64,000 nucleotides of DNA from a virus: the IMG/VR virus record IMGVR_UViG_3300028384_000991, positions 92,564-156,563 of that record; one strand, given 5' to 3'. Shown piece by piece: positions 18 through 51,966 of this stretch. A model generated the notes under the pieces. The model saw only the letters and a program-made list of their open reading frames with translations, did no database searches and was not told the origin of the DNA. The translations under genes were made by a program, and so were the position numbers. Within the stretch, counting starts at the first letter, position 1. Every line of letters begins with the position of its first letter.

Positions 18-1064
18 TCACCCATTACTAATTGCCTTATATAATGCTTTACCTGAAAAGAACTCTGATTGTAATTTCTGTACTTGTTGTTGTACCGGAA
101 TAATATAATCTTTGTAATTTTCCATATAATTTGTAATTTTAGCCATTAACTGACCCCTATTCAATTTATATGACTCAAAGTCTTTAGTCCATTCACTTGG
201 ATATTTGAATTCTTTTAGTGCCATTTCTGAATAACTTAATCTATCTGGAACCATAGGAATAGTACCTACAAGTGCGCCTTCGTACCAACTAATGCCGAGT
301 GTTTCTTGTAGGTTAGCACTGAACACAAGTTTTGCACGACCTAATAAATTATGATATTCATTTTTACTAAGTTCACGTTCTTGACACACAATAAATTCAT
401 ATTGTGGTAATTGTTCTTTTAAATCTCTAAAAATTTCAACTTGCTTTTCTGGAGCAATACGATGCGGAAATAGTATTAAGTTTTCCTTAGGCATATTTTG
501 ATACATACTAAAACTATTTTTTAAGTACTCCATAGGCCAACCAACACGTTTAGTTTTACTTGGGTCCATCTTAAAACTTTTTGCAAACAAATCTATATGA
601 AAGTCTGTAGCATAAAAGTTGTCATCAAACACTTCATACATACTTTGTTCTGCATGACGAACCCAAGGTTTATCACCTATAAGCCTGCCAAGGAAATCAT
701 GAGGATCATAACTACCAGCGTGCCAAAGGCCACCGATTCTAATGTTACACCCCAGTAACTCAGCCATGTATTTAAGTTGGATAACAGTCGGGTTCCAAGC
801 GTCCGTATATAGGAAATAATCTCCGTCATTTATTTCTCCTTTACAAAACATCTCTCCAATAGTTTCAAGTTGTTTTGATTTGTAAACATTTGTTCCACCG
901 AAGTTAAGAAACGCCCCAGGTGTTGTAGCCTGAGGCGTCTCTCCTCCACTAATGACTTTGACGTCCATATTTGTAGCACGTTGAAGTTGCTTTGGAAGAT
1001 GCTCTTTCCACTGCTTGGTGTAGCGTGTATCTACTGCTTCAATATCTACAATATAAACTGTCAT
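18..1064 (-). CDS. Glycosyltransferase, GT-B fold (GT4-like), candidate DNA-base glycosyltransferase
   Basis: 348 aa; C-terminal FPHRIAPEKQ...ETLGISWYEGALVGTIPMVPD resembles the GT4 E-x7-E donor-binding region. Confidence 0.7.
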   Translation of the reverse strand: MTVYIVDIEAVDTRYTKQWKEHLPKQLQRATNMDVKVISGGETPQATTPGAFLNFGGTNVYKSKQLETIGEMFCKGEINDGDYFLYTDAWNPTVIQLKYMAELLGCNIRIGGLWHAGSYDPHDFLGRLIGDKPWVRHAEQSMYEVFDDNFYATDFHIDLFAKSFKMDPSKTKRVGWPMEYLKNSFSMYQNMPKENLILFPHRIAPEKQVEIFRDLKEQLPQYEFIVCQERELSKNEYHNLLGRAKLVFSANLQETLGISWYEGALVGTIPMVPDRLSYSEMALKEFKYPSEWTKDFESYKLNRGQLMAKITNYMENYKDYIIPVQQQVQKLQSEFFSGKALYKAISNG

Positions 1065-1304: not shown

Positions 1305-1748
1305 TCAGTATTTTGCGTACTCGATATGGGCACCATTCTCGCCATCTTCACTGATGTCGATATGTACTTCTCTGCCCGGGAATTTTTCAGCGATCTTTTC
1401 ATAAAGATCATCTGACATCATTTCACATGATTTGTAATCTAAATTTAATGTACCTTCGCTATACAGTTTCTCCATCCATCGTTTAAATTGAATAAACTCA
1501 ATATCTCTGTCGTTGTGTGTAACAGTGATACCTACTTTGAAATGAAAAATGTGTCTGTGTGGATAACCTAAAAATGACACATCATCCCATTCACCTGTTG
1601 CTAACTTAGGATCATCTAAGGCCGCAGGATACTTATGGATACCTTCCTTGCGGAATGTTACCCAAATCATTCTCTTTGCTGTTCGCATGATCTTTTCGTG
1701 TGTTTCTTGTTTCATTGCTTCTTTCATCATTGTATCAGTTATACTCAT
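1305..1748 (-). CDS. QueD/PTPS-like T-fold protein (divergent)
   Basis: H...HRH metal-ligand-like motif (GIHKY...YPHRHIFHF), LNLD..SCE and SEDGENGA matching the PTPS/QueD layout; true start may be the MM at about 1730. Confidence 0.55.
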   Translation of the reverse strand: MSITDTMMKEAMKQETHEKIMRTAKRMIWVTFRKEGIHKYPAALDDPKLATGEWDDVSFLGYPHRHIFHFKVGITVTHNDRDIEFIQFKRWMEKLYSEGTLNLDYKSCEMMSDDLYEKIAEKFPGREVHIDISEDGENGAHIEYAKY

Positions 1749-2495: not shown

Positions 2496-3953
2496 TTATA
2501 ACTCCTCAAAGAGGTTACCAAATTGCGTTTGGGCATTAACCGTCTTCTTTCCTGTAGCGCCTCGGGTGCCAATGATTGACATCCAAAACTTGTTAAATTC
2601 CTCAATTACAGCATTAGCCTCATCTCTGTTGTCAGTTGCAAAAATTGCTTCAACAACATCTCGGAAGAACAATCTGTCAAAACGTTCTTCTACAAGCATC
2701 GCTGGAATTGTACCTTGATCATACTGTCTGTTTGCTTCTTGTACTGCATTAATGTGACTCCAAACATTATGACCCATTTGAATAGCATAACTAAAACTAT
2801 CCCAACTTGTTTTGCCTTCTTTGCCTATTTTGTTTAAATCGCCTGGTGCGTAAATACAAACATCTTTTGCTTGTAAATTCTGTGTGATAGGACTGTTTAA
2901 GAAACTTCCGTGTTTTCCTTCTCTAACAAACGCATCTCCGAATGGTGTTGTATCTGTTGCAAGTGATTTGTCATCGATACTTGGAACCATTCTATAAACC
3001 CATTTCTTTCTGTCCTGAGTTTCAAGTTCACAGTAGATCTGTCCATTAGCGGTTGCGAGGAAAGGCGAAGCACAATCAAATGTGATAGTAAAGTTTTCAT
3101 TATGATATTTTCTTACTGCTCTTTGTATATCTGTAAGTAGTGTTGCCCACTCTAATTTACTTGTACCTAAGAAGTGCATAAAGTCGTGTTTGCCTTTTTC
3201 AAGCAAACCATCAAAACGTAGTGCAACCATTCTTTTAAGTACAAGGTGAACATCACACATATTCTGACCACCCATTGACCAACCATTAAAATGTGTGTCA
3301 GGATATTTTTTAGGATCACAGTAATCTTTCATTTGCTGATACCAATCTTCTGCATCAGCATGATTTTCTCCTTGCAATACATTTAAGAACTTGCAATTAC
3401 CATTACGATTAGCCATAAAGTAATCGTTATTGATACGTGTAGCATTTACGGCATCTTGATAGTTATCAATACCTGTTGCTTTAGCACCAGCAGGTGAACG
3501 TGATACCCAAGCCGGGATATCAAGTATCATACCATAGTCCATATATGCGTCCATCCAAGTTAACACTTGTTCACGTTTCTTTTTTGCTTTAGGACAATTA
3601 GGATCCTTCCAATCACCTTCCCATACACCTTTACCAATCTGGAAACCACCTGAGTCACCAAGTAACCACGAGTTATTTCTATCTCTGTTTCGAATCATAT
3701 CTTCTTTAGGTGCGTCCTTGTTTACATCAAGTTCTGCGTGTCCTGCGGAATATAAACTCCAGTGATAATTGAACAATCCGTGTTGCGTGTTGAACCAGTT
3801 AAGGCCTTCCATTTCGTTGTTAGGAAAAGGAATACGACTTTTGTCTACGTATTCTTCTTTGCGTTGCTTACCAATAAATGTAGCATAAAAGCCACTAATG
3901 GCAGGCAAAAAGATTGCGTAGTCTTTCTGTTCTTTTGTTAAGTTAGTATTCAA
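2496..3953 (-). CDS. dpdA: tRNA-guanine transglycosylase-like protein, probable DNA 7-deazaguanine insertase (DpdA family)
   Basis: TGT motifs DSGGFQI, MILDIP, NVLQG, HFLG, FDCASP; phage context with two QueD-like genes; TTG start at 3953 behind GGAG (ORF track extends to 3965). Confidence 0.75.
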   Translation of the reverse strand: MNTNLTKEQKDYAIFLPAISGFYATFIGKQRKEEYVDKSRIPFPNNEMEGLNWFNTQHGLFNYHWSLYSAGHAELDVNKDAPKEDMIRNRDRNNSWLLGDSGGFQIGKGVWEGDWKDPNCPKAKKKREQVLTWMDAYMDYGMILDIPAWVSRSPAGAKATGIDNYQDAVNATRINNDYFMANRNGNCKFLNVLQGENHADAEDWYQQMKDYCDPKKYPDTHFNGWSMGGQNMCDVHLVLKRMVALRFDGLLEKGKHDFMHFLGTSKLEWATLLTDIQRAVRKYHNENFTITFDCASPFLATANGQIYCELETQDRKKWVYRMVPSIDDKSLATDTTPFGDAFVREGKHGSFLNSPITQNLQAKDVCIYAPGDLNKIGKEGKTSWDSFSYAIQMGHNVWSHINAVQEANRQYDQGTIPAMLVEERFDRLFFRDVVEAIFATDNRDEANAVIEEFNKFWMSIIGTRGATGKKTVNAQTQFGNLFEEL

Positions 3954-3954
3954 A

Positions 3955-4146
3955 CTATTCTCCAAATGCCTTTATTGCTAACAATGGTACAAGCCATGGG
4001 TAAACTAAATGTTCTACTATTTCGTATAAAACTAAAATAGTTAACACTACTGCCCATACTTTGCTTGTTTTTGCTTTCATGCTTACATACGTAAAGATTT
4101 TTCTGTGCCATTGTCCTATCTTTTCTATTATGCCTGGTTTCTGCAT
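3955..4146 (-). CDS. Small membrane protein
   Basis: MQKPGII start with AAGGAG SD; hydrophobic C-terminal segment. Confidence 0.55.
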   Translation of the reverse strand: MQKPGIIEKIGQWHRKIFTYVSMKAKTSKVWAVVLTILVLYEIVEHLVYPWLVPLLAIKAFGE

Positions 4147-4153
4147 AAACTCC

Positions 4154-4882
4154 TTACTTGGTTTGAGCAGGTAGAATATAATTGTATTCTGCCAAACCAC
4201 TGTCGACTGTAAGTTGCATAGCACCTTGATCTGAAATGCTCATTGTAACTTTACCGTCGAGGTTTAAGATTGCCTGCACTTGGGCAACAGGCCACGCCCA
4301 TGCGTGTTTCAAACTACCTTGCACATCTGGATGGAATACAAATGAACCTGCGTGTTGTGATGCATCACCAAAACTAAACACAAGGTTGTTGTTTTCTGTT
4401 TTAACTGTAAACACAGTTTCCTCAGAGTGTGCTAAACTTTGAAACTTCATACGTTGAATAGCCGCCACACTTGGCTCAACTACTACGTCCCAACTTGCAC
4501 CTTTAAACTTAACAGTTTTAAGTTTCTCTTCAATGATTTGCTTGTTCATAAAGCGATAATCATTTTCAAAGTCACCTGCTTCGTTTTCAAAGTGAATGTG
4601 TGTTGGAACAGTTTCGCCATTTCGATCTGCTTGTTCAACAGTAATTTTTGCATTCTTTTGATACTCAGGACATTTTAAGTGTAATGCTAACTTGTCTAAG
4701 TTAGGCATACCAAATGTACCTGCAAATTCGTTTACTGCATTCTTAGTCTTAGAACTAAGAATAACTGATCTATCTTCTGCCATTGATTCAATGGTAGTAT
4801 CAGTTTCATTTGTTACCTTTACAATGTTAAGAAATCCTAACGAATGTGTATGGGCAACGATGTCTTGTAAAATGTCTTTCAT
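4154..4882 (-). CDS. DNA polymerase sliding clamp (gp45/PCNA-like)
   Basis: 242 aa, size and two-domain alpha/beta pattern of PCNA-type clamps, C-terminal YNYILPA; PolB nearby and RFC loader in window. Confidence 0.65.
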   Translation of the reverse strand: MKDILQDIVAHTHSLGFLNIVKVTNETDTTIESMAEDRSVILSSKTKNAVNEFAGTFGMPNLDKLALHLKCPEYQKNAKITVEQADRNGETVPTHIHFENEAGDFENDYRFMNKQIIEEKLKTVKFKGASWDVVVEPSVAAIQRMKFQSLAHSEETVFTVKTENNNLVFSFGDASQHAGSFVFHPDVQGSLKHAWAWPVAQVQAILNLDGKVTMSISDQGAMQLTVDSGLAEYNYILPAQTK

Positions 4883-5643
4883 GGTTGGTCTCCTATTGTT
4901 ACATTATATTTAGAAAATGCTTCTTTGTCAAGTGTTTTTTCTTGGCTAACGAAGTCAATTACATCAATTCTCGCTTTGAATCCAATACTGTTTAATTGAG
5001 TTGTATCAGCAGTATTGTCCTTGCGTTCTTGTTTTCCTCCTTCACGCATTGGAACTTTAATCCCTTTTGCTTGAATAAGTTTTGATAAATGATAAGACTT
5101 GCCTGTGCCTATATCAATTATACCTTTTAGATTACTATGCATTATCATAGTAACTGCTCTACACACATCAGCAATGTGTATAAAATCTCTTGAATGATTG
5201 TTAATATATTCAACATCATTTCTCATAAGTTTTGGAATAAACATATTAGGTCTTGCATCTGATCCATAAATGGTTGTGAATCTTAAACCAACTGCATTGT
5301 CGGGTGCTTCTTTTTCCATAATATGTTTTGTATATGCATATGGATTTCTTTCAGGTTCTTTAGCAGTGCTTGAACTTGCATAGTAGATAGGAACACTGTA
5401 AAAGTCAAATAATCTTTTAGTTGCTTCTACATTGTTTTTCCAATACTCCATAGGTGAATCAAAACTTTCTCTTACTCCGCTCTTACCAGCCAAATGCACA
5501 ACAGCATCTACTTCTGGTAAGTCACAGGTATTTAGGTCTGTACCTAATTTAAGATCAATAAATGTCATATCGTAAATACCACGCCAAAACATTTTTAATG
5601 TTGATCCAAGCATTCCTTCGCTACCTGTGAGTAAAATTTTCAT
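4879..5643 (-). CDS. NAD-dependent epimerase/dehydratase (extended SDR)
   Basis: TGSEGMLG Rossmann motif, VHLAG, ASSS, YAYTK (YxxxK), RDFIHIAD. Confidence 0.9.
   Translation of the reverse strand: MKILLTGSEGMLGSTLKMFWRGIYDMTFIDLKLGTDLNTCDLPEVDAVVHLAGKSGVRESFDSPMEYWKNNVEATKRLFDFYSVPIYYASSSTAKEPERNPYAYTKHIMEKEAPDNAVGLRFTTIYGSDARPNMFIPKLMRNDVEYINNHSRDFIHIADVCRAVTMIMHSNLKGIIDIGTGKSYHLSKLIQAKGIKVPMREGGKQERKDNTADTTQLNSIGFKARIDVIDFVSQEKTLDKEAFSKYNVTIGDQP
4903..4931 (-). promoter_or_regulatory. Consensus sigma70 promoter TTGACA-17-TATAAT for clamp/dpdA unit
   Basis: tgtcaa at 4926-4931, attata at 4903-4908; also overlaps a TAAATA motif. Confidence 0.8.
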
Positions 5644-6032
5644 GCGGCTAATTCTTCCTGAATATATCTTTTTAATTCTTTGTCTTGTACGTCTGTAGGT
5701 ATTTCATTTTTATAAAAAATTCTATAACTGTCAGAACCGTACTTACCAATGCCATATAGTTGTGTAGCATCTTCACCATCCCAATCACCAAACTGTTCAC
5801 TCATTCGATATAATCTTTCTGCTCGAACACGTTGCATACCTAATGGTTGTAGTACATCTTCAATTTCTTTTTTAGTAGCATATAGCAAACTACTATGTGT
5901 AGGCCAACGTCTAAAAAACTCTGTAAGCACAGGTTTAGTTTGACGTCTGTTTACTTGATTAAGACAAATAACACCAACCATATGTTGCCATACATTGTCT
6001 ACTTGTTGTTGAACCATTAGATCATCACGCAT
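5640..6032 (-). CDS. HhH-GPD DNA glycosylase, MBD4-like
   Basis: ICLNQ, LQPLGM..RA, LYGIGKYGSDSYRIF and D-K-E-L closely follow the MBD4 catalytic domain. Confidence 0.85.
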   Translation of the reverse strand: MRDDLMVQQQVDNVWQHMVGVICLNQVNRRQTKPVLTEFFRRWPTHSSLLYATKKEIEDVLQPLGMQRVRAERLYRMSEQFGDWDGEDATQLYGIGKYGSDSYRIFYKNEIPTDVQDKELKRYIQEELAA

Positions 6033-6357
6033 CGTATCTCTTTCCATCAAACACACAAACAAATTCTAACCAATAGTCGCCGGTGTTATGAACTTTGTGA
6101 AATACATTATCTTCAATTAAAACAATGTCACCTTCTTTAACGTCAAATATTTTATGATCAAGTTCCATTTTACCTGTACCTTTTGTAAACATATAAACTT
6201 CTTCTTGACCTGCGTGTCTATGTCCATTTGTACTTTGACCCGCTCGTAACTTTGTTTTACTGAGCATCAAGTTCTTTAATGTCTTATTATCAAACAATTG
6301 ATACTGTGCATTATCTTTAATTAACTCACCGCCTACATCAAAGTTTTCATATTTCAT
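6025..6357 (-). CDS. Cupin domain protein
   Basis: GHRH..QEEVY...G.G and FHKVHNTG cupin motifs. Confidence 0.85.
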   Translation of the reverse strand: MKYENFDVGGELIKDNAQYQLFDNKTLKNLMLSKTKLRAGQSTNGHRHAGQEEVYMFTKGTGKMELDHKIFDVKEGDIVLIEDNVFHKVHNTGDYWLEFVCVFDGKRYDA

Positions 6358-6896
6358 TTCTTTACTCCAAAATGTTTATAGGATTGCTGTACACACTTTG
6401 CTTGATAGTAACAGTCTGCAAGTGCATTGTGTAAACTTTCTTGTATTGCTTTACGTGGATCACTTGGCATCATAGCAAACAATGTTCTACTATCTCTAAT
6501 TTGCCAATAGTTCCAAGGCACAGGTTTTTGTGCTTCTTTATATAAACTTTGTAATATAACAAAATCAAAAGTAGGACCTTGACACCAAATGTAATCTAAG
6601 CCAACTGCCCATTTGTTAAGTTGTTTAAGCATTTCTTGTACACCTACTCTATCTGTGTGTTCACCAAATGCTTCATCTTGTATTGCTTGATCTTGTTTAC
6701 TCCACCAAGCAAGAGTATTATCATCAATTGAACGATTAAACTTTTCTGTTTGTTCTTCTACATCACCACGCAGGTATAATCCACTATGTGGCTCCGTATC
6801 TGAGAACGGATCAAACTTAATTGCACCAAGTGTCATAACAACACTGTCAGGCTCAACGCCAAGTGTCTCTAAGTCTATCATACCGTGAGTAGCCAT
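6354..6896 (-). CDS. DEDDh 3'-5' exonuclease (DexA/Rv2179c-like)
   Basis: MIDLETLG, FDFVIL, RDSRT, HNALADC. Confidence 0.85.
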   Translation of the reverse strand: MATHGMIDLETLGVEPDSVVMTLGAIKFDPFSDTEPHSGLYLRGDVEEQTEKFNRSIDDNTLAWWSKQDQAIQDEAFGEHTDRVGVQEMLKQLNKWAVGLDYIWCQGPTFDFVILQSLYKEAQKPVPWNYWQIRDSRTLFAMMPSDPRKAIQESLHNALADCYYQAKCVQQSYKHFGVKK

Positions 6897-9566
6897 TTAT
6901 TCTCCAAAGTCAAATAAGTTGTTAAATGTATTCTTGGTCTTTGTGCTTTCTAAATCATACTTCAGCACTCCGATCAAGTTGTCAAGTTTGTTATCAATGA
7001 TTGTGCCTTCCATAGCATCACCATCAAAAGGAAGTTCCTTAAACCAGTCTGGCAAATGCATTTCGTCTACTGGATATGCAACACTTGTATACCCCATTGG
7101 ATTTTGTTTTAGTTTACAAACAATAACTTTCATACCATCTACAATCTCTTGCGAATATTTGTCACTGTTCATTTTCTTAAGAGTATTCCAATTGATACTT
7201 GCTCTTACGTGTCCAGGCATATTTGCCTTGCCTTGTTTTTCTTCAAGACGCTGATAGTGTCCAATTTTGTTTGCACGTTTAGGTGAACCTTTTTCATGTC
7301 CAGGTCGTGATTTAAATTCAGTTCTAAATTCAGTAATACGATCTAAAATACTATCTTCACTTTCAAACTGCAACACTTTAAGTAATAGTTCACTCAAGAA
7401 GTCCTGCATAAACACCGGAGTATCTGAACGTTTAAGATCAAGACCCATTGCTTTTACTTTGCCTGGCTTGCCATCAACATCTACACGTTCACCTTCGTTA
7501 TCATAAATCAATGCCGCATATCTTTTCTTTGTAATATACAGTCCGCTTTCTGCAACAATCTCTCTACCTGCCGCAATTACTTCTGAACGTGTCTTAGGAC
7601 AATGGAACGCATCAAGCATAAACTTAGGAAATGATTTGTTTGCTTCTGTACAAACTTGATCATAAAGTTTAATTACATTGTCTTTACCCCAAGGAATATT
7701 ACCTGCATCAATATCTTGTTTAAGCACAGGATATGCACTAAAATAACAAGAGTCAGTATCACCATAGATAATTGCTTTACCTACGTGATTGTATTCGCCT
7801 GTAATCACCTTGTTTACTTCTGCGGACATATGTTTTACAATTTGTCTGCCTGTGAGTGTAGTAGATTGACCAATACGTCCGTCAAAGAATCTACAACCAG
7901 GATTAAGAATAGCACCATACAAACTGTTTAGATTAATTTTCTTAACAAGTTGTCGTTTGTCCCAAAACTCTATTTCTGCTTTGTTACCTGCGTCAATGGC
8001 TTTCTTTTTCATTGCCTGCATTTCTTTACGTTCTGCATACCAACGTTTTAGCAGTCCTGGAATAACACCTTCGAACTCATATGTAAAGATTGTACCATTA
8101 GCACTCAGCATCCACGGATTGTTACTATCATATATGACTTTATAAATCTGTGCACCACTCATTACATCTGATTGGCCATTTTCCCAATCAACAGTAATAC
8201 TAACATCTCTACGTTGTTCCATTACTGCATCGTATTCCATAGTGCCGAAACGTCCTTCCCAAGCCGCCGCAAATGATTTCTTTTTCAAGTTCATTTGCTC
8301 ACCAACATATTTGTTAGTAAGTTCTGGACGTAGTTGTCCTACAACAGTTTCGGGAGCCATATTCAATGCACGAATCACTGAAGGATACAGTGAATTCAAG
8401 TCCATTGATCCAATCCATTTGTGAACCCCTACTTTCGGAAATGCAACATAAGCACCAGCCGCCGGATCACTACCAGGCTCACGTTTTACTCTATTAGGTA
8501 CTTGCATACCTCTGTGATGTGCTTCGTTGATAATTGCTTGTTCTGTAACAGCAACAGCACCCATAGTTGTTTGTAGTAGCACAGTGTTTGCATGAGCAAG
8601 TTCGTTACTAAGATCAATAAATCTTAGTTTTTTATCTAACTTATCCAACAGTGCAACGTCTTGTCTGTTATATTCAATAAACGTTCTAAAATCGTTGTTG
8701 TATAGTTGATCAAGTGTGCCTTCGTAAACAGTCTTACGTTCACCGACTTCCATCTCACCAATGGCATCTAATCGATATGTATGACGTTCTTCATATGTAT
8801 ACTTCCGATATAATTCTAAACTATCTAAATGTACACGACCTACAAGATCATAAGTTTCTTGTTGTCTGCCAAACTTTTCATATTCACGCTTTTTAGGAAA
8901 CTGATCAAACAAACAAAAACGTCTTGTATCATCTTTACTCAATACTTTTGCAACACGATTAACAGTGTACGGAATATCATAACCTTCACTGTTCCAACCA
9001 GTAATGATATCACTATCTTGAATCAAATCAAGAAATGTTTTTAACATATCTGCTTCGTCTGCAAATAAATGTGTGTTAGGAAATTCTTTTACTTGTTCTT
9101 CTGCTTGTTCCATTGTAAGTGTCTTAGGCGGAACAGCAAGTGTTACAAGTGTATCAAGCCATTGCAAGTGAACAGTAATAGCAGTAATTGGCATAAACGG
9201 ATCACTTGGATCAGCAAAGCCTCTGTCAGGATCAAAGTCTGTCTCAATATCAAAAAATGCAACATTTAGTTTAGGGGCATCGTGATTGAGATAGTTTTCA
9301 CTTAGACATTGAAAGATAGGATTTACATCACTTTCATACAGATCTTTGTTTTTATTAATTGCTAATTCTTTGCGGAAATCTTTTGTGTTTTTACAAACAA
9401 TTCTGTTTAGTGGTTCACCGTGAATACTTTTATACTTTCCACGTTGGTCACCATAATAAAAAGTGTACTTGACAGGATATTCAGTAAACGATCGTTTACC
9501 TTCTTTACGTTCTACAACACGAATAATATCTGCGTTGCGATCAAAAAATGCATCTACATAACTCAT
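6897..9566 (-). CDS. polB: Family B DNA polymerase (gp43-like)
   Basis: Exo motifs FDIET, GWNSEGYD, YNRQD; polymerase motifs DLNSLYPS, KKINLNSLYG, YGDTDS, KKRY. Confidence 0.97.
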   Translation of the reverse strand: MSYVDAFFDRNADIIRVVERKEGKRSFTEYPVKYTFYYGDQRGKYKSIHGEPLNRIVCKNTKDFRKELAINKNKDLYESDVNPIFQCLSENYLNHDAPKLNVAFFDIETDFDPDRGFADPSDPFMPITAITVHLQWLDTLVTLAVPPKTLTMEQAEEQVKEFPNTHLFADEADMLKTFLDLIQDSDIITGWNSEGYDIPYTVNRVAKVLSKDDTRRFCLFDQFPKKREYEKFGRQQETYDLVGRVHLDSLELYRKYTYEERHTYRLDAIGEMEVGERKTVYEGTLDQLYNNDFRTFIEYNRQDVALLDKLDKKLRFIDLSNELAHANTVLLQTTMGAVAVTEQAIINEAHHRGMQVPNRVKREPGSDPAAGAYVAFPKVGVHKWIGSMDLNSLYPSVIRALNMAPETVVGQLRPELTNKYVGEQMNLKKKSFAAAWEGRFGTMEYDAVMEQRRDVSITVDWENGQSDVMSGAQIYKVIYDSNNPWMLSANGTIFTYEFEGVIPGLLKRWYAERKEMQAMKKKAIDAGNKAEIEFWDKRQLVKKINLNSLYGAILNPGCRFFDGRIGQSTTLTGRQIVKHMSAEVNKVITGEYNHVGKAIIYGDTDSCYFSAYPVLKQDIDAGNIPWGKDNVIKLYDQVCTEANKSFPKFMLDAFHCPKTRSEVIAAGREIVAESGLYITKKRYAALIYDNEGERVDVDGKPGKVKAMGLDLKRSDTPVFMQDFLSELLLKVLQFESEDSILDRITEFRTEFKSRPGHEKGSPKRANKIGHYQRLEEKQGKANMPGHVRASINWNTLKKMNSDKYSQEIVDGMKVIVCKLKQNPMGYTSVAYPVDEMHLPDWFKELPFDGDAMEGTIIDNKLDNLIGVLKYDLESTKTKNTFNNLFDFGE

Positions 9567-9886: not shown

Positions 9887-10157
9887 TTTGTGCCTTGTCG
9901 TCTATCCAAATATCGTAGTGTGGTTTGCCAAAGCGTACACTTGTGTATTTGACTCCCCATACTTGTAATTGCCTAATTGTAAATTCTTCCCAGTCTCTGC
10001 CAGAGTTTGCGCCTCTTGCTGTCCAGTAATGAATTTCATTGCCTTCATCAAAAAGTTTGTTAAAGTGTTCGATACGTTCATTATTTGGTTCACTGTTTTC
10101 ATATTTACTATCAATAGTATAACAGATTGTACCATCAATGTCAACCATATATTTCAC
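9846..10157 (-). CDS. Minimal HAD-family phosphatase
   Basis: DIDGT, WTARG, GKP, IDDKA. Confidence 0.85.
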   Translation of the reverse strand: MKYMVDIDGTICYTIDSKYENSEPNNERIEHFNKLFDEGNEIHYWTARGANSGRDWEEFTIRQLQVWGVKYTSVRFGKPHYDIWIDDKAQNDKEYFKTIKNTG

Positions 10158-29327: not shown

Positions 29328-30245
29328 TTATCCGTCTGTTAGACGTGCTAAACGAATCATGGTTGCGGCTAAATTAATCTCTGGATCTGCAACAAGTGTG
29401 TGATCTACAAGACCTTGTTTAATAATAAGAATAGCATCATCTTCTTTGTCACCAAACAATGTAATATTGTCATACAACCATTTGAAAATATCTTCTACTT
29501 CATCTGGACGTACTTGACTACATACAAGTTTTCTTGCTTGATTAATTTTGCCTGCTTTGAATAGTTCGACCATTTCAAGTTTGTAGTCTGCTTCGCCTGT
29601 GTCACCTTCTTGTGGCTTTTGCAGTGTGCCATCTACACTATTCATTTGTACCATATTGATACACTTACGCAAGTCTGGATATGTTGCTTTTACATAAGTG
29701 TCAAGTGTATCTAAGTCAGGTTGTACACCTTCTGTAATAAGGATCTCTGCAACACGGGCAGTAAACTCTGTTTGATCAATACGTTCAATATGAAACCCTT
29801 GACAACGTGAATGTAGTGCAGGAATAATTCTGTTTGGATAGTTACAGGTTAAAATAAATCTACTTGTAGTATGATATTCTTCCATTACACCACGCAGTGC
29901 CGCCTGTGCGTTCGGCGATAGATAATCTGCCTCATCAAGCAATACAACTTTAAACTCTCCAAATGGAATCATTTGTACAAAGTTAATAATTTTATCTCTA
30001 ACATCATCAACTGAGTTTGTACGACTTGCGTTAATTTCTAAAATATCTAAATCATTAATTTCAAGTTCATTAAATAAAATTTTAGCAAGTGTTGTTTTAC
30101 CAATACCTGCGTTACCTGAAAATAACAAATGTGGAATAGTGCCTTCTTTGATCCATTGTTGCACTTGTTTTCTTTGATGTTCATCTCTGAACACATAACC
30201 GTCTACTGTTTTAGGACGATACTTTTCTACCCATAGTTCCTTCAT
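29328..30245 (-). CDS. Clamp loader ATPase (gp44/RFC small subunit-like)
   Basis: [25 protein letters not shown]. Confidence 0.93.
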
Positions 30246-51516: not shown

Positions 51517-51966
51517 TTAACCTTCGTAGATTGCTGAATTTGCGCCGTGCTCTGCACATTCGACTTTTACACAATAACAACGATTGTTTGTCTGTTCTCT
51601 AATAAGTTTGTCAGCAAAATTAAATGCGTGTTCTGCAAACTTCTCTGCACCCACACCGTCAAAGATACGTAGTTCTGCTAAACCTTTTCTTTCAAGTTCA
51701 CGCATAGTTCTCATTTCTGGATCTGCTGAATCAACTACAACTTTGTGATCAAAACTATCTTCGAGCCATGCCTTCAAAGGTTTAAGTCCACCAAAGTCAA
51801 CTGCCCAGTTTTTGTTATCCAAATGATCACAACCAAATGTAAATGTAAATGCTAAACTGTAACCATGTAGCAAATGACAGTGTGAGTGATCTGCGTTTGG
51901 CTGTCTAAAGACTGCCGAAAGGCCAATGTTATGACCATAGTGTTTTGTGCTATAATGTTTTGCCAT
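51517..51966 (-). CDS. queD: 6-carboxy-5,6,7,8-tetrahydropterin synthase (QueD/PTPS)
   Basis: CHLLHGY, VDFGGLK, FDHK, G.EKFA, E..ANSA. Confidence 0.88.
   Translation of the reverse strand: MAKHYSTKHYGHNIGLSAVFRQPNADHSHCHLLHGYSLAFTFTFGCDHLDNKNWAVDFGGLKPLKAWLEDSFDHKVVVDSADPEMRTMRELERKGLAELRIFDGVGAEKFAEHAFNFADKLIREQTNNRCYCVKVECAEHGANSAIYEG

Follow-up and report, generated by a model that had tools for sequence, protein, structure and literature searches.

The window analysed here is the final 64 kb of a virus contig of 156.6 kb (IMG/VR record IMGVR_UViG_3300028384_000991; genome about 44% complete), and near its beginning it carries the genes for a family B DNA polymerase (PolB), a predicted PCNA-type sliding clamp and a DpdA-like guanine transglycosylase. 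The polymerase and the transglycosylase end in similar short peptides, and the subject of this work is the probable role of that peptide in tethering the transglycosylase to the clamp. The gene order is PolB, an exonuclease, a cupin-like open reading frame (ORF), a HhH-GPD protein, an epimerase, the clamp, a 63-amino-acid (aa) ORF, the dpdA-like gene, two small ORFs, dpdL, a small ORF and a glycosyltransferase; the genes, the two tail motifs and the promoter before the clamp for which window coordinates are given below all lie on the minus strand. By their polymerase, clamp and DpdA-like genes, the nearest cultured phages are PA5oct/Paride, Phosso, Vibrio 2.275.O and Atu_ph07, with the RaK2/121Q group more distant, and close relatives are very abundant in metagenomes, Tara samples included.

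The dpdA-like gene (2496..3953) encodes 485 aa, its likely start being the TTG at 3953 behind a GGAG instead of 3965. Pfam, PHROG and PDB sequence searches returned no match for the protein, so that structure prediction was needed, and no match to a tRNA-guanine transglycosylase (TGT) was found for any of the 95 alignment members; by sequence, it appears to be only a remote TGT homologue. With its AlphaFold2 model (predicted local distance difference test score, pLDDT, 93 overall and about 95 in the core), all of the top 50 Foldseek matches in the PDB were TGTs (probability 1.0, template modelling score (TM) 0.37-0.46 by query). Residues D100, S101, G103, H260, G263 and D293 are invariant, and the aspartates D100, D145 and D293 (DSGG motif, second Asp and nucleophile Asp) are 98-100% conserved; we take them, on the basis of the motifs, to be the equivalents of Z. 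mobilis D102, D156 and D280. The nearest characterised phage relative is nt-1 DpdA2 (BFVD match with E 6e-11, hhalign 93.5%), to which it is 20% identical across 172 columns. A quick, long-branched tree, of which the topology alone was used (its motif labels came from a loose pattern with false positives), places the two in separate clades with a Shimodaira-Hasegawa-like approximate likelihood ratio test value of 100. The protein is thus not a DpdA2, and it is not a DpdA3 either, as the DpdA3 of phage phiST has about 260 aa and aligns over 84 columns with a probability of 84%; the Campylobacter CP220 DpdA3 was looked for and not located. It therefore stands outside the named DpdA subfamilies, nearest to DpdA2, and from its fold, catalytic residues and gene context we infer a guanine transglycosylase that acts on DNA and puts a 7-deazaguanine in the place of G.

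The genes expected to supply such a base are also encoded. The product of dpdL (1305..1748) is a QueD-like T-fold protein with the LxxxHRHxF signature (PMC10516641), predicted to be a 7-carboxy-7-deazaguanine (CDG) decarboxylase, and has tblastn matches at the dpdL loci of ACP17 and phiST. QueD lies at 51517..51966 (phrog_2389, E 9e-40), while FolE (G000, 87.7-88.4 kb) and a QueE-like gene (G000, 86.6-87.5 kb) lie just outside the window. Together, FolE, the QueE-like protein, QueD and DpdL predict a base derived from CDG or 7-deazaguanine (DG); a search for QueC in the genome, about 44% of which is available, found none. The glycosyltransferase-like gene (18..1064), identified by weak PF00534 and phrog_4356 matches and by a homologue beside dpdA in ACP17 (E 8e-71), may add a sugar to the deazaguanine base. 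Such a gene accompanies dpdA and dpdL in most related loci, and also in Paride, Phosso, ACP17, X1 and BUCT-ZZ01. In the Vibrio 2.275.O branch (L083:9908-17000; L149), the partners of this same DpdA subfamily are QueC, QueF and a Vut_1 transporter in place of DpdL and, because of this, the inserted base probably differs across the DpdA family. DNA of the relative PA5oct is resistant to five restriction enzymes, and its authors interpret this as modified G (PMC12191111).

The clamp ORF (4154..4882, 242 aa) was not named by Pfam, PHROG or PDB sequence searches. Its AlphaFold2 model (pLDDT 92) has a two-domain clamp fold closest to PCNA (Foldseek E 3e-11, TM about 0.70), in agreement with the clamp identity proposed in a preliminary description of this DNA, and a homologue in phage PAC2 is annotated as PCNA. 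One subunit of an RFC-like clamp loader was identified at 29328..30245 (phrog_168, E 6e-78). The same description had placed dpdA two genes downstream of the clamp under one consensus promoter, and this arrangement is borne out: a perfect predicted sigma70-type consensus (12/12 match; 4903..4931) lies 21 nt ahead of the clamp start, the next strong site is at 1777, and the only hairpin from the clamp to the end of dpdA is weak and at chance level. The intervening ORF (3955..4146) encodes a small, hydrophobic, membrane-type protein of 63 aa with 17 homologues among the fetched loci; it is a conserved insertion in a subset of close relatives and is absent from many others. The 4931 promoter is downstream of PolB, to which another promoter site, at 10144, is closer.

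PolB (6897..9566, 889 aa; PF00136, PF03104; phrog_262, E 3e-198) ends with the motif FNNLFD (aa 881-886, 6909..6926), which holds a conserved L and F pair. In DpdA, the candidate clamp-binding motif is FGNLFE (aa 478-483, 2505..2522), assigned from its conservation and from the low pLDDT of the linker before it. The quoted tails, F-x-x-L-F-[DE] on both proteins, are as first described, and the AlphaFold2 model is consistent with a flexible DpdA tail, since pLDDT falls below 50 at residues 465-476 and 483-485, with the motif modelled as a short helix on its own (475-481). Among 183 ORFs, only PolB and DpdA carry [FY]xxLF in their last 45 aa. As 0.14 such C-terminal matches are expected by chance in the genome, this coincidence within a single genome is no more than suggestive, and the case for a shared tail rests on comparative data.

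For that comparison we used 240 loci with a complete polymerase end, clamp and DpdA. These were fetched around dpdA with a clamp match required, so the synteny figures are conditional on that choice: in 219 of the 240 loci at most 600 nt separate dpdA from the clamp gene, in 127 at most 100 nt, and the synteny persists at about 33% identity. A strict motif, [FY]xx[LMF]F in the last 60 aa, is present in 61-74% of DpdAs (lineage-weighted), compared with 3-4% of shuffled tails, 2-7% for an upstream DpdA segment and 2.2% of other ORFs (n=3200), and the tail is thus conserved in orthologues as the tether idea demands. Across 48 representative sequences with less than 75% identity, F478, L481 and F482 are kept in 75, 79 and 83%, whereas most linker positions are kept in 4-35%; in the polymerase, the last two positions of the motif are L in 45/48 and F in 48/48 representatives, in a window anchored on that pair. 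The DpdA motif is often trailed by an acidic extension and has been shifted or duplicated after insertions (L144, P0134, P0136), and so it behaves as a linear motif. The likeness to a PCNA-interacting peptide (PIP) box put forward earlier holds for the hydrophobic triad and not for the glutamine: Q475 occurs in 4% of representatives and the polymerase has Lys at that place, which rules out a canonical PIP box. A motif for the host beta clamp is rejected on a spacing unlike QL[SD]LF, and the codons at F, L and F, which agree no more than in shuffled pairs, speak against a recent copying of the tail at the DNA level. Phosso, a Sinorhizobium phage, is a weak case with a loose match, its DpdA ending VEGLF and its polymerase FNDLFTF, with dpdA far from the clamp.

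The two tails also vary together. The polymerase motif was scored against DpdA tails in cognate and permuted pairs drawn from 11-47 clamp lineages, where clustering is a rough control for shared ancestry only, and whichever clustering level was used, the cognate pairs scored higher than the permuted ones (median p 0.001, z 4.4-5.1); shuffled tails, the upstream DpdA segment and the clamp C-terminus gave no such signal. The pairing can be seen in the polymerase and DpdA tails of Vibrio 2.275.O (NTDLFDW/NNDLFGW), L151 (AMKLFNY/AKSLFEF) and Paride (FDSLFGW/FNSLFDV). An independent test of the covariation in the PCNA-type group is provided by T4-like phages with DpdA2-like enzymes (n=4), in which a T4-style [ST]L[DE]x[LF]F ends both the polymerase and DpdA: SLDDLFE/TLDELFE in ACP17, SLEDLFG/SLDDLFG in Moby, SLESLFG/SLEELFG in X1 and TLDDFFS/SLDSFFD in BUCT-ZZ01. 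A gp45-type clamp is annotated in ACP17, the one of the four in which the clamp gene was checked. T4 gp43 and ligase use the gp45-binding motif LDFLF (PMC6212786). In pf16 the motif is degenerate.

A predicted complex of the clamp trimer with DpdA aa 456-485 scored 0.54, against 0.09 for the best control, with contacts that agree 93% between runs and a partner pLDDT of 67; the mark applied was reached by 58/80 solved complexes and 2/110 mismatched pairs. This supports binding weakly, the pass at 0.54 may reflect memory of solved PCNA-peptide structures, and the prediction adds little on its own.

Our reading is that this DpdA is a client of the phage sliding clamp, to which we give a probability of about 0.7. 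In the mechanism we propose, the transglycosylase would swap G for a 7-deazaguanine made by the phage FolE, QueD, QueE and probably DpdL, and the F-x-x-L-F peptide on its flexible C-terminal linker would plug into the peptide pocket of the PCNA-type clamp. The polymerase tail presumably uses the same pocket, by the precedent of T4/RB69 gp43 and PCNA, and the enzyme would become concentrated on phage DNA that carries a clamp, whether at the fork itself, at sites of recombination or along the lagging strand, where clamps stay behind. Binding of the DpdA tail to the clamp is likely, and it is nearly as probable that the tail sits in the clamp's peptide pocket and places the enzyme on clamp-loaded phage DNA. 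A real gain in the modification rate on new DNA, with modification right behind the fork, is only slightly favoured, and the sparing of host DNA suggested in the preliminary description is doubtful. The conservation of the tail, its covariation with the polymerase tail and the clamp fold all back the tail-clamp interpretation given there, while docking itself stands as the best explanation of these data, with weak predicted binding.

A number of observations weigh against this reading. The strict motif is missing in between about a quarter and two fifths of lineages, and without the three most divergent lineages the covariation is weaker (median p 0.004-0.01, worst draw 0.36). Passing complex scores of 0.60 or less were given by only 7/80 solved complexes and by both of the passing mismatches, and binding of the PolB tail to this clamp is itself presumed from homology. 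A phage clade (L221, L226, L286 and L288) has no DpdA tail, although two of its loci keep the clamp and a normal polymerase tail. In this clade, a natural control, dpdA has been relocated to a place after dpdL and the glycosyltransferase; where the clamp is in view, in two loci, dpdA is 4-5 kb from it among other modification genes. The DpdA2 proteins of nt-1, VH7D and Grn1 do not have the motif, and those of nt-1 and VH7D act on plasmids in E. coli, where no phage clamp is present (PMC10516641). The phiST and immuto DpdA3 proteins, which replace all G and adjoin Pol III or Pol A genes, have no such tail either, which rules out that a tail is needed for complete G replacement. Because of these DpdA3 proteins and the tail-less clade, the tether can be neither universal nor required for full modification. 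Finally, the nearest phage precedent, binding of T4 alpha-glucosyltransferase to gp45, was not reproduced in 2025 with C-terminally tagged enzymes (bioRxiv 2025.12.06.692756). Conversely, the tailed ACP17 dpdA expressed with dpdL gave no product in E. coli (PMC10516641), which fits a clamp requirement, though several other causes are possible. Also in favour of the reading, two DpdA homologues from bacterial chromosomal islands, the only two such control loci, have no tail. Both islands (L153:7070-11467 and L356:7761-16150) carry integrases, the former also has QueC, a PTPS/QueD gene and a radical SAM gene, and they are possibly an undescribed bacterial modification system.

The tail could bind the clamp for an end other than fork-coupled modification: it might keep the enzyme processive, or hold it in place, wherever phage DNA carries a clamp, including in late replication, recombination or packaging, or it might regulate DpdA, with host DNA spared otherwise or not at all. 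We consider this possible and rather unlikely: through the same peptide, T4 gp33 and gp55 act in transcription on clamps that have left the loader (PMC9690074), and tail-less DpdAs still modify DNA, but the early-type promoter shared by the clamp and dpdA and their tight synteny suggest action during replication, without being decisive. That both tails instead bind another shared phage partner (clamp loader, single-stranded DNA-binding protein, helicase or scaffold) or the host beta clamp is improbable. Short hydrophobic tails are promiscuous, and covariation points to a shared partner without naming it; against this, the dialect tracks the clamp type, FxxLF occurring with PCNA-like clamps and [ST]L[DE]xLF in T4-like phages, the spacing is not that of the beta-clamp motif and dpdA abuts the clamp gene.

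An explanation that dispenses with a partner, in which the motif serves the structure or oligomerisation of DpdA itself and resembles the polymerase tail by compositional chance, is largely disfavoured. The codons for F, N and L are AT-rich, the motif is a short helix in the model and TGTs are dimers. However, the signal is gone in composition-preserving shuffles, the motif moves along the tail and matches the cognate polymerase in two dialects, and chromosomal homologues that share the core do not have it. There is also very little probability that the enzyme acts on tRNA or free nucleotides with an incidental tail, as its best matches among solved structures, the tRNA TGTs, would have it. 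Those matches reflect what has been solved, while the nearest characterised phage relative is a DNA enzyme, DpdL, FolE, QueD and QueE are present, and the DNA of PA5oct resists restriction.

Clamp-client peptides and DpdAs are both known, and their combination is undescribed in the literature searched: no report of a clamp-binding DpdA was found, most subscription papers being outside the reach of the search. The proposed client resembles those of T4/RB69 gp45, namely gp43, gp33, gp55 and ligase (LDFLF; PMC6212786, PMC9690074), in having a short hydrophobic peptide on a flexible tail or loop that is common to the polymerase and other enzymes; it differs in that the client is a base-exchange enzyme, the clamp models nearer to PCNA, the motif is FxxLF and binding is predicted. 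With the phage DpdA2 of Vibrio nt-1 and VH7D (PMC6884629, PMC10516641) it has in common the catalytic aspartate motifs, a TGT-fold core of about equal size and linkage to FolE, QueD and QueE, but besides the low identity (~20%) and separate clade, those DpdA2s that were assayed differ by lacking a clamp-type tail and by modifying few Gs. The 2'-deoxy-7-deazaguanine (dDG) system of Cellulophaga phage phiST, with DpdL and DpdA3 (PMC10516641), is alike in its FolE, QueD, QueE and DpdL, with QueC not seen in the available ~44% of our genome; unlike here, its DpdA3 (260 aa) is weakly related, tail-less and beside Pol III alpha. DNMT1, recruited to PCNA by a short motif (PMC9690074), is likewise a DNA-modifying enzyme, but it is a eukaryotic maintenance methylase with a canonical PIP box and an unrelated fold. 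The T4 alpha-glucosyltransferase and gp45 were proposed as a clamp-coupled phage DNA modification, and the present system, if our reading is true, gives that idea a second chance after the failure to reproduce it.

Insertion of 7-deazaguanines has been described as a post-replication event, and the literature explains neither how the enzyme finds phage DNA and reaches high coverage nor the failure of some systems in E. coli (PMC10516641). If real, a clamp tether would offer one answer, and would establish the peptide code of a PCNA-type phage clamp that has yet to be characterised. The tail is present in the cultured phages PA5oct/Paride, ACP17, Moby, X1 and BUCT-ZZ01, for which the tail-less nt-1, VH7D and Grn1 serve as natural controls. 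Tentatively, clamp tethering may recur in lineage-tuned form among phage base-exchange enzymes, where it would couple 7-deazaguanine insertion to the replisome in at least two clamp families, target phage DNA and perhaps explain the failure of ACP17 in E. coli without its clamp and loader.

Some further genes near these loci deserve mention. Between PolB and the clamp (4879-6896) lie the epimerase, the HhH-GPD glycosylase-like protein, the cupin-like ORF and a Rv2179c-like exonuclease. A HIT-type hydrolase with a HxHxH motif outside the window (G000:C1:89499-90008) is a single case whose end, near QPSLF, resembles the host beta-clamp motif. In BUCT-ZZ01, a second glycosyltransferase directly before dpdA (L331:2665-4008) has the end SLEDFFND, which is also polymerase-like. 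An ORF of about 200 aa that occurs sporadically near dpdA (L199:11512-12141, L141:13779-14369, L147:10470-11087 and L157:12494-13117) has no Pfam match and the look of a PD-(D/E)xK nuclease; it also ends with [FY]xx[LF]F and, judged by this ending, is a possible further clamp client.

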